From the NCBI GenBank assembly GCA_951406725.2, contig OX597831.1:51832001-51896000 (forward strand): 64,000 nucleotides of DNA, in the 5' to 3' direction. The position numbers and the translations under genes were made by a program. This DNA is from Octopus vulgaris (Eukaryota). Shown here piece after piece: positions 2,429-59,281 of the stretch (position 1 is its first letter; each line of letters opens with the position of its first letter). The notes beneath the pieces are model-generated. The model had not been told where the DNA came from. It ran no database searches and saw nothing but the letters and a program-made list of their open reading frames with translations.

Positions 2429-2833
2429 GGGCAGCGAGCTGGCAGAAACGTTAGCGCGCCGGGCGAAATGCTTAGCGGTATTTCGTCTGTCGTTACGTTC
2501 TGAGTTCAAATTCCGCCGAGGTTGACTTTGCCTTTCATCCTTTCGGGGTCGATAAATAAAGTACCAGTTTCGCACTGGGGTTGATGTAATCGACTTAATC
2601 CCTTTGTCTGTCCTTGTTTGTCCTCTTTGTGTTTAGCCCCTTGTGGGTAGTAAAGAAATATATATATATTCGACAAGCTTCTTTCAGTTTCTTTCTATTA
2701 ACTTCACTCACAAGGCTTTGCTCGGCCTGGGGATATAGTAGAAGACACTTGCCCAAGGTGCCACGAATCAGGAATGAACCCAAAACCATGCGGTTGGGAA
2801 GCAAGGTTCTTACCACACAGCCACGCCAGCGCC
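2147..2833 (-). mobile_element. SINE family A copy (tRNA-like head, internal microsatellite) with a SINE-B inserted in its microsatellite
   Basis: Reverse complement of the family A sequence seen at 25626-26000 and 41621-42010. Confidence 0.85.
2429..2660 (+). mobile_element. SINE family B, long-tail form
   Basis: Head gcagcgagctggcagaa...gagttcaaattcc (B-box-like), central gactttgcctttcatcctttcggggtcgat, tail ttagccccttgtgggtagtaaagaaata. Confidence 0.85.
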
Positions 2834-9374: not shown

Positions 9375-9815
9375 AAGCGGTGAGCTGGCAGAACCGTTAG
9401 AACGCCGGGCAAAAAGCTTAGTGGCATTTCGTCCGTCTTTACAGTCTGAGTTCAAATTCCGTCGAGGTCGACTTTGCCTTTCATCCTTTCGGGATCGATA
9501 AATTAAGTACCAGTTGCGTACTGAGGAAGTTCTAATCGACTGGCCCCCTCCCCACAAATTTCGGGTCTTGTGCCTAGAGTAGAAAAGAATATCATACAAT
9601 GAATTAAAGCGGTGAGCTGGCAGAACCGTTAGCACGCCGGGCAAAAAGCTTAGTGGCATTTCGTTCCTTCTTTACAGTCTGAGTTCAAATTCCGCCGAGG
9701 TCGACTTTGCCTTTCATCCTTTCGGGGTCGATAAATTAAGTACCAGTTGAGCACTAGGGTCGATGTAATCGACTCTCCTCCCCCTCCCAAAATTACTGGC
9801 CTTGTACCAAAATTT
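9375..9815 (+). mobile_element. Two tandem SINE-B copies with different 3' tails and a duplicated upstream flank
   Basis: aatatcRtacaatgaattaaagcggtgagctggcagaaccgttag occurs twice, ~230 bp apart. Confidence 0.85.
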
Positions 9816-10668
9816 AAAATGAAGGATATTGGATTCTGACTTCGATTTAGACGTACGAGCGTTCATTCGTTCGATCAAACGAACAAGTTGTTCAGTGAAA
9901 AAGCGTCCGAAGTGGCTGAGTATTTCACAAACACGTGCATCCTTTACGTAGTCTCAGGTAGAATCAGTGTGATAAGGTTGGACCTCTGAAACACGAGAAC
10001 AAACTATCTAATAGTTCCTTTACAGTCTCCACCGACCCAAATTCACTCGCTAAAACTTATATGGACCAGAAATTATGATATAAAACGTGCCCAAGGTGCC
10101 ACGCGGTAGTATCGGACCCGCTATTTCATGGTTGCGAAGCGAACTTCTTAACCACACATCCATGTCTTCTTTCACATTCATTCAATGCTCATAGTTTTAT
10201 TCATTCACTGAATGTGTTTCTACTGCTAGTAAATTTAAATGCAATGGAATATTTTTCTGTTCAACAGCACACAAAGCCATCTCTTGCCTTCTCTTTTGTA
10301 ATTCGAAGCCACTCTATTTCATACTAATCACAAGCTCTTATATCTCTATATCTCCTAAACTTAACTTTTCCGTTAAATTCATCTTATTGTTCTCATCTGG
10401 TTTGTGAGTCAAAGATTTCCTTCAAACTGGATAATAAATTTATCAAAAGCTTCTGCAGGATTATCATCCTTCAACATATGTGGCTTGATTCTGATTGATG
10501 ATAGAACTGATTATCGTAACTTCTCAAGCATAAATATTGTTGCAATTTGTAATTTCAAGAAGCCACTATACAATTATAGACGTATTTCACACTTCAGAAG
10601 ATTTTAACTAACGAAGTCATTTCATAAACCTTTTATAATAAGCGGAGATTGAGCAAGCATGTACACGA

Positions 10669-13952: not shown

Positions 13953-14175
13953 AGGGCGGCGAGCAGGCAGAATCTTTAGCACGCGGGCGAAATGCGGTAT
14001 TTTGTCGGCCGTTACGTTCTGAGTTCAAATTTTGCCGAGGGCGACTTGGCCTTTCATCCTTTTGGAGTCGATTAAATAAGTACTAGTTACGCACTGGGGT
14101 CGATGTATTCGACTTAATCCCTTTATCTGTCCTTGTTTGTCTCCTCTATGTTTAGCCCCCTGTGGGCAATAAAAA
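13953..14175 (+). mobile_element. SINE family B long-tail copy with ~15-bp TSD
   Basis: Flanks aattaatattggttt / aattaatgttggttt. Confidence 0.85.
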
Positions 14176-14186
14176 AATTAATTAAT

Positions 14187-14582
14187 GTTGGTTTCAAGCT
14201 TTGGCACAAGGCCAGCAAGTTCTGGGGAGGGGTAGGTCGATTATATCAACCCCAGTGCTCGACTGTTACTTATTTTATCAACCCCGAAAGGATGAAAGGC
14301 AAAACCGACCTCGGCGAAATTTGAACTCAACGTAAAGACGAACGAAATGCCTATTTCTTTACTACCCACAAGGGGCTAAACAAAGAAGGAAAAAACAAGG
14401 GCAGACAACCGGATTAAATCGATTACATCGACCCCAGTGTGTAACTGGTACTTAATTTATCGACCCCGAAAGGATGAAAGGCAAAGTCGACCTCGGCGGA
14501 ATTTGAACTCAGAACGTAACGGCAGACGACATACGGCTACGCATTTCGCCCGGCGTGCTGACGTTTCTGCCAACTCGCCGCC
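14187..14582 (-). mobile_element. Nested SINE-B: long-tail copy (14352-14582) joined into the head of a short-tail copy
   Basis: The minus strand reads ...tgggtagtaaagaaata|ggcatttcgttcgtctttacg... Confidence 0.85.
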
Positions 14583-26000: not shown

Positions 26001-26065
26001 ATATTTTGAAATATATATTAAAATATATAACTTTAACATATATATATTTTATATAAAGTGAAATA

Positions 26066-26495
26066 TTGGTTCAAATTTTTGGCACAAATTTTTAGCAAGT
26101 TCGACGGGTGGAGTAAGTTGATTACATCGACCCAAGTGTTCAACTAGTACTTAGTTTATTGACCCTGAAAGGATGAAAGGCAAAATAGACCTCAGCGGAA
26201 TTTGAACTCAGACGAAATCCCTGTAAACATTTTTGTCCGACATGGTAAAGATTCGGCCAGCTCGCCATCCTTATGTAAAAAGGGAATATTAGATTCAAAT
26301 TTTGACACATGGCCAGTACTTTCGGGGGAGGGGGTTAAGTCGATTACATTGGTACCCGTACTCAACTGGTTCTTAATTTATCGACCCCGAAAGGCAAAGT
26401 CAACTTTGGCGGAATTTGAACTCAAAGCATAAAGACGGACAAAATCCTGTTAAGCATTTCGCCCGGCGTGCAACGATTGTACCTGCTCACCGCCT
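26066..26495 (-). mobile_element. Two tandem SINE-B short-tail copies
   Basis: Reverse-complement B domains at ~26120-26210 and ~26340-26425. Confidence 0.75.
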
Positions 26496-26605: not shown

Positions 26606-27040
26606 AGACGGCGAGCTGGCAGAAACGTTAGCGCACCGGGCGAAATGCGTAGCCGTATTTCGTCTGCCGTTACGTTCTGAATTCAAATTCTGCCGAGGTC
26701 GACTTTGCCTTTCATCCTTTCGGGGTCGATTAAATAAGTACCAGTTACGTACTGGGGTTGATGTAATCGACTTACTCCGTTTGTCTGTCGTTGTTTGTCC
26801 CCTCTATGTTTAGCCCCTTGTGGGCAATAAAGAAATAAGAATTGTTAGCACAGCAGATAAAATGCTCAACGGCATTTCTTCCGGTTTAATGTTCTGAGTT
26901 CAAGTTCTGCTCTGATTGACTTTGTCATTCATCCTCTCGGGGTTGATGAAATAAGTACCAGTCTACCACTGGAGTCAGTGTAATCGACTTGCCCCTCTCC
27001 TTCAAAATTTCATGTTTGTGTCTATAATACAAAGGATTAT
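26606..27040 (+). mobile_element. Nested SINE-B: long-tail copy (to 26837) joined into the head of an older copy
   Basis: ...tgggcaataaagaaata|agaattgttagcac... Confidence 0.85.
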
Positions 27041-32632: not shown

Positions 32633-33075
32633 TGGCGAGCAAGCAGAATCGTTAACACGCCAGGCAGAATGCATGGCGGTATTTCATCCGTCTTTACGTT
32701 CTGAGTTCAAGTTCCGTCGAGGTCAGTTGTACCTTTTATCCTTTCTGGGTCGATAAAATAAGTAACAGTTGAACACTGGGGTCGATGTAATCGATTTAGC
32801 CTCTACCTCGAAATGGCTAGCCTTGTGCCAAAATGTTGAAAGCAATATTTCAAATTACTTAAAGTTGGCGAGCTGGCAGAATCGTTAGCACGTCGGGCAA
32901 AATACTTAGCGGCATTTCATCCGTCTTTACGCGCTGAGTTCTAATCCCACCGAGGTCGACTTTACCTTTCATCCTTTCTGGGTTCATAAAATTAGTACCA
33001 GTTGAACACTGGAATCGATGTAATCGACTTAGCCCCCACCCCCGAAATTGCTGGCCTTGTGCCAAAATTTGAAAC
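32633..33075 (+). mobile_element. Two tandem SINE-B short-tail copies
   Basis: Two heads (ggcgagc...) ~235 bp apart, each ending ggccttgtgccaaaa-like. Confidence 0.85.
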
Positions 33076-33255
33076 CAATTTTTAAAGTTATTTATTAACT
33101 AACAATATATGAATTGTACACTAAATGTTAAACACAAGTTACACAATGGTAATATTTACGAGGATTCAGCCTCCTCCATAATAAAAACAACTACGTTTTA
33201 TTCAATAGCTTAACTAAAACAATGAAACACATACATACATACATACATACATACA

Positions 33256-47207: not shown

Positions 47208-47274
<67 letters not shown>

Positions 47275-48609
47275 CCCGTTAAAAGGAGGGCTGGGCATGC
47301 CGTGGTTGATGATGCGCAGACACGCGCTGAGACTGCGACATCTCCGGCTCTATGTAGACGACGGTGAACAGGTGTGGTCGCCGTTTGTGAGGCACGCATT
47401 CCCGCAACTCGTCTCCATGACCGAACTACAGTCGTGGATCAAAAAGAGGCCGAAGAAGGGCGAATGGCACCGCGAGTGTCGCGTTGCTCTCAAGCAACTC
47501 TGCCGTCCCGGGTCGACCTTGAGTGACTTCAACACAACCAAAGCATTCTATAGGGGATTAGTGGAGGGGAGGTACGACGACGAGCTCGGGGCAAACCTGG
47601 GCGTCGACGAGGAATACCTGACCCGCCTGTTTCAAACGACTTTCGGCCCGGGACCTATGGACAACTTCCAGAGATCCCTGGCCTGGCGGTGCTACCGAGA
47701 AGCGCTACCCGTTCGGGATAAGCTCTATAGGCATGGCTCGAGAAACACGGGGCCGACCTGCCCGAGATGCGGGCAGAGCGACGAAACCGCTCTGCACGCA
47801 ATCGTGCAGTGTCCAGCAATTTCCCACCTGTGGGCTTATGTCGAACGACTGCTGTCACGTGTGGGACGTGTCGGTTTATCAGCCGAGTCTATCGTTAATA
47901 TCGTCACGCCTCCTTCCTTCAAACGGGAAGGAAGAGCTATTTTTATCATACTTGTGGCTATGGCGAAAGAATGTATCTGGTGGACGCGTCTGAAAGGATT
48001 AGAGACAAACACTTTCCTCTCTGGTCAATCTCTCATCAACTTCTTCAAGTATCACTTGAAGAAAAAAGTGAGAGTAGAGAGGCAAGTTTTGTCTAGTGAA
48101 TGTTTTAAAAAAAGATGGGTGAATGTAGCAAGGATGGCACGTATGAATGACGAAGCCACCTTGACTATGATTCTATGAACCGTAAAAATTAATACAGAGA
48201 GTTGCTTATTTGCAAAAAAAAAAAAAGAAATATAACATGTGACTTCATTGACCGAGGTTACCGTGGTCTTTTCCGTAGGCTTTTCTTTCCACGGGTAAAC
48301 CTCACCTGTCCTCCCCTTTACACTTCATATTGACATTTCTGTGATAACGATCCCTATTGATCAATTTTTTTTCCTCTCCCCCTTTTTTTTTAACCCCCCT
48401 TTTTTTGTCCTCTTTCTCTCCTTTTACGATCCCTTTTGATCGACCCCCCTTTTTATTTTATTTTATTTTTTATTTTATTATTATTATTATTTTTTATTTA
48501 TTTATTTATTTATTTATTTTTTTTTTTTTTTTTTAAACCTTCAAAAGAAAAGATCTACCTTGTAATTTTTTCTGTCTGTGTGCAGCCCTGTGTGGCTAAT
48601 AAAGAAACA

Positions 48610-57125: not shown

Positions 57126-57691
57126 ACACTGTTCCAGAGATATCTCACCGTTACCACCATCCACCACGATACTATCAAAAGCAACACAAAGACTTCAGCA
57201 AAATCCGTCCAGTCTTTAATTTCTTCCCGTCTTAGCAATAAAACTGTTGTTATTGTCATTGCTGTTGTTTGGCTCCAGATCAGTCCTACTCGCGCAGATT
57301 TGGGATCAACGGATTTATATTATATGTGTTCATAAAAGACGGTGATGTGAGTGAGATTTGGCTGCTATTTCTAGCGGGTTGAGCAGTCACGTACAAGCTC
57401 AGTCGTTAGCTTATTAGTTAACACTATTGTCAGTTTCAGTCCAGTTCTGCTGTAATCGAGCAAACCTATCAATAAAACATGTCAACCGTGACCATCCCGT
57501 CTTTTTCGTAGATACAGTGCGAGTAGTAGCATATCTATAAGCTCTTTTTTAAGACACTGTGTTGTGATTACTATGAGGGAGATTTGTATGCTATTTCTAG
57601 CAGATCAAGCGGCCACGTGAAGGCTACCTCTTTAGCTCAAGTAAAACATCTATCTACAGATTATTTAGTATTGTAGATGTTTAAATAATCC

Positions 57692-58285
57692 TAAGGTGGC
57701 AAGATGGTAGAATCGTTAAAACGCCGGGCGAAATGCTTAGCGCTATTACGTTCTGAGTTCAAATTCCGCCGAGGCCGACTTTGCCTTTCATCCTTTCGGG
57801 GTCGATAAATTAAGTACCAGTTACGCACTGGGGTCGATATAATCAATTTGATCCGTCTGTCTGTCCTTGTTTGTCTCCTCTGTGTTTAGCCCCTTGTGTG
57901 TAGTAAAGAAATAGGTATTACGTTCTGAGTTCAAATTCCGACGAGGTCAACTTTGCCTTTCATACTTTCGGGGTCGATTAAATAAGTACCAGTTACGAAC
58001 TGGGGTCGATATAATCGACTTAATCCGTTTGTCTGTCCTTGTTTGTCCCTTCTGTGTGTAGCTCCTTGTGGGCAATAAAGAAATAAGAATCGTTAGAACA
58101 CCGGACAAAATGCTTAGCGGCATTTAGACCGTCTTTACGTTCTGAGCTCAAAACCCGCCGAGGCCGACTTTGCCTTTCGTCCATTCGGTGTCAATAAAAT
58201 AAGTACCAGCTGAACACTGGGGATCGATGCAATTGATTTACCACCTCCCCCAACTTGCTGGCTTCGTGCCAAAAATTGAAACTAA
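57692..58285 (+). mobile_element. Triple-nested SINE-B array
   Basis: Junctions ...tagtaaagaaata|ggtattacg (57913/57914) and ...caataaagaaata|agaatcgttag (58085/58086). Confidence 0.88.
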
Positions 58286-59281
58286 ATTTATATAATTCTT
58301 CCCTGTGAGATAGTTTTGTGAGTATTCGTTTGGTAATTCCTGAATGCAAAGGAAGAGAGAAGAGAAGAGTAGAGTAGAGAGAGAGAGATCTACAAACATT
58401 AGATCTGATGTCTTTTTAAAGCCAATTTAACATCAAATATGAATAACAAACCCACTGGCAGGGAACGATCACTGCATTTATTGCATACCGTGTGAACTAC
58501 GCTGAAGCTATATGTTTCTTCTCCAAAACCGATGCCTGATTATTTCTCTGTTGCACTGCCACGTTCTTCAGCACTGTCTTCACATGTCTCAGAAATAATA
58601 TATATCAGAATCCTTTCAATGTTGAGTCAGGTTTTACGTCCCAATATCTAATATAACAAGATATCCGATTTATGATTCAATGTATAGACGAGAAGTAACT
58701 CTTCCAGGGGAGAATATGAATAAATTATAAAATATCGGCTAGGCTTATCTAAATATCCTTTTCTATAAATAAGCATAAGATCTGAAATTTTAGGGAGAGG
58801 GCAATCGATTCTGAAGAATTGTATAAATTTAACAGTGAAAAATTGAAGTCAAGTCACTCTAAAATCACACACTATTGTCTTTCAATAGTGATAAGGAAAA
58901 AAGTAGTGTGTGTGTGTTTGTATATATATGTCTGTTTATATATGTATCAACGAGCAATGGAGATCTATCTGTTAGAAATAATTGCCAAACCACTCAAATT
59001 ACACCCTACTGTCTTAATTTATATATGTACTTAAGAATAGCAACGATGCCTCTAAGTGCTGCCTCGACCTGCTATATATAACTACCAAATTTCCATATAA
59101 CCATACTCTATTGGTTTATATATATATATATAAAACAGTACTTGGAGAAGAAGAAATATTTTTATTTGTATCGTTTTTACGTCCTGTTTGTGTTACATTT
59201 TATTTTTTTATTTTTTGTTTTTACCCCTCTGCGAAGTAATTTTATTTTGATTCTCTCGCAGGAAGGGCTAGTTTCACGAGT

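Follow-up and report, generated by a model that had tools for sequence, protein, structure and literature searches.

The SINEU elements of crocodilians are moved by Tx1-type LINEs, and 90% of SINEU-3 insertions occupy fixed positions of an abundant repeat (Kojima 2015, PMC4494074). Alu elements insert into one another through the poly(A) tail and the A-rich linker. Approximately 19,000 such events have been described, a minor fraction of the Alus as a whole (Levy et al. 2010, PMC2836564). In R2Ol, read-through 28S sequence improves both the accuracy and the efficiency of insertion (PMC6795142), and insertion of SART1 is sharpened by read-through target sequence (PMC7265360). Priming of L1 depends on pairing at the target end (PMC3649969), and the precise 5' joins of R1A have been ascribed to cDNA annealing (PMC2718515).

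We analysed 64 kb of Octopus vulgaris DNA (51,832,001-51,896,000 of contig OX597831.1; the whole stretch is called the window below), which contains approximately 25 pieces of one SINE superfamily. Its long-tail (L) member inserts into the head of its own family. This resembles SINEU/Tx1-Mar in its apparent Tx1-type partner, in its fixed sites, in its sequential tandem insertions, and in the presence of LINE families at different sites (PMC4494074). However, the crocodilian target is a Mariner DNA transposon, and the SINEU heads are derived from U1 or U2 (PMC4494074). In octopus, the target is the head of the SINE's own family, the site changes between tail lineages, and insertion usually overwrites the head of the host. 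A U1- or U2-derived head was not found in the L SINE, and Rfam gave no snRNA match at E up to 5. The Alu hotspot is likewise a sense self-insertion at one prominent nucleotide, which that study attributes to the RNA tail pairing with its target, whereas in octopus about two-thirds of one tail lineage is involved, the sequence is not A-rich, and the head is replaced in register (PMC2836564). R1/R2 and SART1 offer two further parallels: the 3' junction becomes sharper when read-through RNA anneals to the nicked target (PMC6795142, PMC2718515, PMC7265360), and upstream homology gives precise 5' joins (PMC2718515). Those elements are autonomous, carry strongly specific endonucleases and insert into host genes or telomeres, whereas here a non-autonomous SINE targets itself. 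Squamate sSat arrays also consist of head-to-tail partial SINE units behind a leading copy (Vassetzky et al. 2023, PMC10702118). They run to hundreds of units and are ascribed mainly to recombination (PMC10702118), whereas the octopus arrays are short (up to five units in the sample), very numerous and seeded by targeted insertion.

No description of self-targeting by this SINE was found in the literature searched, which excluded subscription journals and Repbase reports. Ohshima and Okada reportedly described octopus SINEs in 1994. In the covered parts of a 2026 octopus repeat annotation (PMC13282606), supplements apart, the word "nested" does not occur and Tx1 occurs once. Self-targeting by the octopus SINE is real, and it is a new form of target-specific retroposition.

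The SINE superfamily and its insertion sites

All members of the superfamily share a head and core (positions 1-166) and carry one of three tail types, L, S1, or S2. The L SINE is 231 nt long, non-coding and present in high copy number, and it ends in TAGT-AAAGAAATA or CAAT-AAAGAAATA. At least 74,299 plus 20,904 exact L tails are found genome-wide. Target-site duplications, with a median length of 17 bp, flank 59 of 109 solo L copies. In tRNA-derived SINEs (SINE2), the head is related to a tRNA and carries Pol III A and B boxes; in the L consensus, TGGCAGAAACGTTAG is A-box-like and GAGTTCAAATTC is B-box-like. ARAGORN and Rfam gave no tRNA match to the head. A resemblance to the MetaSINE superfamily, which is marked by a 66-bp Meta domain after a tRNA head, is possible; no MetaSINE string matching the L SINE was found in the one of two supplement files that was searched.

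The sample comprises 1.43 Mb of the 2.8-Gb genome and contains 989 units in 602 chains. Most of its loci were picked by pattern search, mainly on contig C1, and are therefore enriched for the patterns in question. Tallies unselected for flanks come only from the lists of 105 TAGT and 99 CAAT tails and from their companion counts. Two loci that resembled segmental duplicates were removed before host and insert divergences were counted, and four loci (one duplicate and three SINE hosts) were removed before the upstream motif was tested. Three near-identical composites within 160 kb on C1 (L251-L253) are probably a segmental duplication.

The sequence-only reading of the window had placed the TAGT tail directly before ggYatt and the CAAT variant directly before agaatYgttag. 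Both statements hold to the base. gtagtaaagaaata is followed by ggtatt at 57913/57914, and ggtagtaaagaaata is followed by ggcatt on the minus strand at 14352/14351. gcaataaagaaata precedes agaatcgttag at 58085/58086, and a second CAAT-variant junction, at 26837/26838, continues with agaattgttag. Specificity was said not to be absolute, and copies do sit elsewhere, at 2430 and 13954 (2429 and 13953 in that reading). Enrichment of the two head positions in genome-wide flanks was borne out by exact counts. TAGT joined to GGYATT occurs 45,355 times, with 0 for the reversed-pattern control, and the tail joined to AGAAWCGTTAGC occurs 3,465 times, again with a control of 0.

Among the flank-unselected tails, position 48 follows 71 of 105 TAGT tails and position 15 follows none. 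The assignment of the CAAT variant to position 15 stands only in part. Position 15 comes next in 12 of 99 CAAT tails, but position 48 is also used (8/99), and most of these tails adjoin non-SINE DNA (79/99). Tail type and the site used are strongly associated (Fisher p = 4e-10). In 270 kb of DNA taken without selection, 48 intact position-48 sites were counted, or approximately 178 per Mb, so the enrichment of TAGT copies at this site is, by arithmetic, several thousand-fold. An antisense SINE lies next to the terminal tail in only 4 of 228 cases. Self-insertion of the L SINE into the head of its own family is confirmed as a real, genome-wide event with tens of thousands of cases.

Other placements were also seen. 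One GGTACT motif of the SINE core has received two L-TAAT copies (L298, L255) in antisense orientation and may thus be a minor third site. Head-to-tail pairs of S1 and S2 SINEs, separated by spacers of 10-19 nt, are frequent (19 of 132 S1 tails and 17 of 109 S2 tails), as at 9377-9819, 32634-33079, and 26060-26495 in the window, and S1 tails are joined at about position 15 in seven cases. By these pairs and joins, the older families show self-clustering as well.

Nesting in older copies and the growth of arrays

The focal locus is a trimer (Table 1). Its S2 unit belongs to a class that is approximately 14-15% divergent. The CAAT unit was inserted at position 15 of that S2 copy and is itself the host of the TAGT unit, which belongs to the L class (4-6% divergent) and is probably the last insertion, joined in register. 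The simplest order that we infer begins with an old S2 copy; a CAAT copy then entered it at position 15, and a TAGT copy followed at position 48, its join lying downstream of the deletion. The two L units have no rare SNP in common and differ at diagnostic positions 125 and 128. The deletion near 57.7-57.9 kb, which the sequence-only reading had called private, is indeed shared by both segments, 12 nt long and rare, but it is not private; it recurs in nine heads and two junctions among the first 100 of 374 matches, as counted by eye. The repeat that flanks the trimer is a probable target-site duplication of the S2 host, AT-rich and weak alone. The minus-strand composite at 14185..14582 has acttatatca on both sides.

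Table 1. SINE and LINE features of the window; head positions refer to the SINE consensus
Feature	Position	Strand	Remarks
L SINE unit, TAGT tail, only head of the trimer	57695..57913	+	12-nt deletion after position 51
L SINE unit, CAAT tail	57914..58085	+	starts at position 48; same 12-nt deletion
Short-tail S2 SINE, position 15 to tail	58086..58285	+	oldest unit, original host
Probable 5' target-site duplication of the original S2 host	57680..57692	+	11/13 identical to 58287-58299
Probable 3' target-site duplication of the original S2 host	58287..58299	+	partner of 57680-57692
Full L-TAGT SINE, L-type head, joined at position 48 of an S2 copy	14352..14582	-	
S2 host from position 48	14185..14351	-	host's C at position 50 kept
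L-CAAT SINE, antisense in tail of S2 host 14185..14351	13954..14184	+	off-site; 16-bp duplication
Full L-CAAT SINE joined at position 15 of an S2 copy	26609..26837	+	
S2 host from position 15	26838..27009	+	downstream of L-CAAT insert
Solo L-TAGT SINE between (TG)n and (TA)n microsatellites	2430..2660	+	off-site, TATAT class
5'-truncated Tx1/L1-like LINE, (TATC)n-targeting family	47270..48607	+	last ~50 nt resemble L SINE tail

The hosts had been said to differ in tail and in divergence, and the position-48 pairs agree. Downstream S2 units stand at 0.152 from consensus and the upstream L units at 0.047, with S2 higher in 17 of 17 pairs. The corresponding values for S1 hosts are 0.080 and 0.042, with S1 higher in 34 pairs and lower in 8 (n = 43). 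Solo copies stand at 0.151 for S2 and 0.094 for S1. Host divergence equals that of solo S2 and is near that of solo S1, so the hosts are older genomic copies. At position 15, the host is older than the insert in six of six S2 cases; S1 and L hosts are not significantly older. No clusters were found among the hosts, and the S2 hosts form a star (mean pairwise distance 0.266, mean nearest 0.199).

Explicit nested composites also occur. A host head, a 13-19 bp duplication and a full insert were found together in 10 of 130 position-48 composites as against 1 of 111 solos, and L237 shows the same explicit arrangement at position 15. Near 775.6 kb on C1 (L092/L206), the host's own deletion is present in both duplicates around a full-length insert. 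This locus is a direct parallel to the focal one and gives the deletion argument of the sequence-only reading in explicit form. The order of units in arrays is polar, with TAGT before CAAT 45 times and the reverse three times, as expected if TAGT copies insert at position 48 of any host. When empty and filled sites were sought in four public runs, the contigs of every run ended within the SINE; they show no more than that the 5' flank and the start of the head exist in further samples and under two further species labels.

Two explanations without repeated targeting have to be weighed against these data. Dimeric or multimeric masters may have been retrotransposed whole, so that each junction was made once and then copied. 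Several features of L-L composites agree with this: outer duplications are nearly as frequent in them as in solos (20/42 and 59/109), a few 3'-truncated dimers have clean duplications, and L-L neighbours are similar in age (0.038 vs 0.044). Such a route probably adds to L-L arrays. However, it cannot yield downstream S1 and S2 units that are older than their inserts and mutually unrelated, and it cannot produce full inserts preceded by a host head and a duplication. As the source of the junctions it is very improbable, and as their general cause it is refuted. The single amplified dimeric master against which the sequence-only reading had set its proposal fails on the star of downstream hosts (S2 nearest about 0.20). 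What that reading had argued instead, an in-register 5' join, agrees with the explicit nested loci and with the unrelated older hosts; its wider claim, nested self-targeting at two fixed head positions with a tail-dependent site, is upheld by the flank tallies and the same loci.

Alternatively, unequal crossing-over, slippage, and gene conversion between dispersed copies could have made the junctions at the DNA level alone. Local copying is real once a dimer exists. A rare variant is common to 43 of 124 L-L neighbours (null 3.4%), and two or more are common to 16 of 124 (null 0.06%). A confinement of this sharing to the duplicated 48-65 region was looked for and not seen; it is spread evenly along the unit. 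However, a rare variant is common to only 4 of 55 L-to-S pairs. High sharing in L-L pairs and low sharing in L-to-S pairs indicate that local duplication or conversion extends arrays after the first dimer has formed. Furthermore, recombination leaves without reason the base-exact non-homologous junctions, the GGTAT and AGAA starts at unique sites with 15-20 bp duplications, and the full inserts inside duplicated host heads. We therefore consider it highly unlikely that such events alone made the junctions.

Arrays of one, two, three, four, and five L units were counted 286, 75, 12, 9, and 1 times in the enriched sample. Four or more middle monomers in tandem, the mark of sSat, were not seen in this sample, whose longest array has five L units. 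A ribozyme or circular-RNA origin of the 184-bp unit was considered and rejected; it has no Rfam match, its head fold is not unusual (z = -1.63), and the arrays begin with a head.

A single head is present in 120 of 130 position-48 composites. Where the host is S2, this head has T at position 50 in 13 of 13 cases and C at position 61 in 12 of 13, while the host-type T at position 19 and the host-type A at position 36 are each kept in 5 of 13. Because the alleles are mostly those of the insert, the cDNA is likely to be joined in register within the homologous head, usually replacing it. The suggestion that host heads serve as promoter donors is not supported, since the heads are mostly insert-type. 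The in-register join resembles the precise 5' joins proposed for R1A (PMC2718515).

Partner LINEs and the choice of site

Several LINE families with an APE endonuclease, an RT and a zf-RVT domain have 3' ends that align with the L tail, so the tail is shared with Tx1-like LINEs. The Tx1 label follows domain layout and target specificity, not a tree. The LINE at 47270..48607 appears to be a relative of the partner LINE. Its family has a zf-RVT domain, and intact ORF2 copies of 1149-1152 aa with APE endonuclease and RT exist elsewhere (Pfam Exo_endo_phos, RVT_1, and zf-RVT). The best solved relative of this ORF2 is human L1 ORF2p (E 1e-53). Insertion into (TATC)n was seen in all 28 loci, among 30, in which the tail motif was found. 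This family (window copy; L340, L360-L395) is young, has many intact 1152-aa ORF2 copies and is sometimes stacked. The top RT matches were examined as partner candidates and rejected, since they belong to other LINE families without the tail. An abundant young LINE family with 949-aa frames (L317-L339) ends in a short stem-loop and (ATT)n, and its tail is unrelated to that of the L SINE.

An older Tx1-like family has a tail closer to L, and all 10 of the 10 loci retrieved for it lie at position 34 of a SINE head. Its hosts are L, S1, and S2 heads, and one locus has host head 1-49 upstream. The family is represented by L396 and L404-L413, and the wider family has a cluster of similar copies on contig C31. 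At L415:1-800, a non-SINE element with a near-identical L-like tail is inserted at SINE position 15. It has an AT-rich repeated 3' region and the end of a short ORF, with no ORF2 in the 950 bases read. Tail-related LINEs at (CT)n and ATTATT are single copies. No LINE was recognised at position 48 among 28 matches in one search; the eight fetched with upstream DNA were all SINEs. Likewise, the first 100 of 920 matches for a LINE-type tail at position 48 look like SINE variants, as judged without upstream DNA. A recurring GGAT tail at this position proved to be a SINE sub-lineage. A LINE is thus found at 34 and the SINE at 48 and 15, and one non-SINE element lies at 15 as well. On contigs C1-C4 (e.g., C1:64.24-64.25 Mb), tails beginning TGTTCGCCCCTTGTGGGTA are stacked head to tail with spacings of approximately 5.2 kb and 1.78 kb, which suggests that a LINE and a shorter passenger element use a common site.

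The use of sites outside the SINEs gives further information. Where the L SINE has landed off target in unique DNA, the first letters of the duplication match those of the SINE site, over staggered lengths. A GG start is found in 18 of 31 TAGT copies and 9 of 78 CAAT copies (p = 1.5e-6, four full 9-nt matches having been taken out beforehand). The sites of CAAT tails are of four kinds and go with a single-base haplotype; of two CAAT haplotypes, one scored position apart, one goes to AAT sites and the other to AGA/position 15 (p = 9e-6). An upstream motif is also present, with Y at -1 in 35 of 48 sites, R at -2 in 32, R at -3 in 34, and T at -5 in 22. It is loose, similar for both tails and weaker for CAAT, and it fits the TTAGC and CTGGC that precede the two SINE sites. 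Since RNA cannot supply an upstream motif, this is likely to be the share of the endonuclease.

Position 50 bears on the question from within the hosts. It is T in 93 of 100 junctions compared with 20 of 100 heads with the same downstream letters (p = 1e-27, scored by eye), and within S2, defined by tail, in 15 of 17 hosts compared with 13 of 48 solo copies. Selection of T50 hosts could account for part of this excess. Among nine loci chosen for the host's C in the 5' duplicate, eight are informative. In five of the eight, the 3' duplicate has T, the base of the insert, and in L308 and L309 insert-type letters run through position 64. The other three keep the host C, which counts against a role for RNA pairing. 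Long overwritten host tracts are not general; in unselected position-48 hosts, divergence is 67/673 over positions 55-74 and 245/2528 over 90-165 (p = 0.83), and L-type alleles at 61/63 are not significantly raised in S1 hosts (10/34 vs 4/24, p = 0.36). GAAATA is repeated just before GGTATT in four junctions (L250, L258, L188, L149), as expected from slippage during priming.

The L SINE nests in older, unrelated hosts with a sharp 3' junction, a median duplication of 17 bp and a LINE-like tail, and its choice of site is tied to the tail lineage. What sets the site is less certain. We lean towards a mechanism in which the site is set by pairing of read-through RNA, together with a loose nick by an endonuclease borrowed from a Tx1-like LINE. 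Pol III needs a run of T to stop. The L consensus lacks any run of four T, so read-through from composite loci is expected. Source copies already at a site would give transcripts that pass through the tail, past AAAGAAAUA, into the remainder of the host (GGUAUUUCG... or AGAAAC...). This 3' extension may pair with the strand nicked by the Tx1-like endonuclease. Its sole abundant long match would be the head of its own family, which would make the targeting self-feeding and would bring the L SINE repeatedly to two exact bases, 47/48 and 14/15, of older superfamily copies. The cDNA end would then anneal in register to the homologous host head and leave mostly one head with mainly insert alleles. 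Repeated insertion, followed by local copying of the 184-bp unit, may build arrays of up to five units.

The sequence-only reading had instead credited a sequence-specific endonuclease. Site-specific Tx1-like LINEs with related tails do exist, but none was found at position 48, and several signs (the bases of the 3' duplicate, T50, and the off-target starts) favour the read-through RNA end as the chooser of the site. In its strong form, each tail variant is moved by a sister Tx1 LINE whose own endonuclease recognises position 48 or 15. This form draws on the abundance of Tx1-like families whose tails are related but whose fixed targets differ ((TATC)n, (CT)n, ATTATT, and position 34), on the non-SINE element at position 15 and the stacked arrays of approximately 5.2 kb, and on the base-exact junction. 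The position-34 LINE and L415 indicate that several site-specific LINE families target the SINE, which counts against RNA pairing, and in crocodilians different Tx1-Mar families are described as setting different SINEU sites (PMC4494074). However, no LINE-type tail was recognised at position 48 among the matches listed, the upstream motif is weak, and the four kinds of CAAT site follow a single-base haplotype. Furthermore, an endonuclease cannot place insert-type bases in the 3' duplicate. Dedicated endonucleases are therefore a possible but rather doubtful account of the site, although they can act together with RNA pairing.

Meaning for SINEs and their targets

A broader proposal, which we put forward only tentatively, is that target choice is heritable and programmed by RNA. 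The downstream flank of the source copy could act as the guide for its daughters, so that a lineage would become locked onto one base once a copy had landed in its own family's head, and sister lineages onto other bases, while all share one loose LINE enzyme. If this is true, site specificity evolves through the RNA flank and not through the protein. If the flank does determine where a copy lands, Tx1 ORF2 combined with an exchangeable 3' guide would be a candidate for programmable insertion. The shares of the endonuclease and of RNA-DNA pairing in the target specificity of non-LTR elements become testable in one genome. In repeat libraries for genomes of this kind, the one process will be broken up into many spurious SINE "families". 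For the octopus SINE itself, a single base of its own family serves as the main point of insertion, used in tens of thousands of events, and this provides a concrete route from dispersed SINEs to satellite-like arrays.
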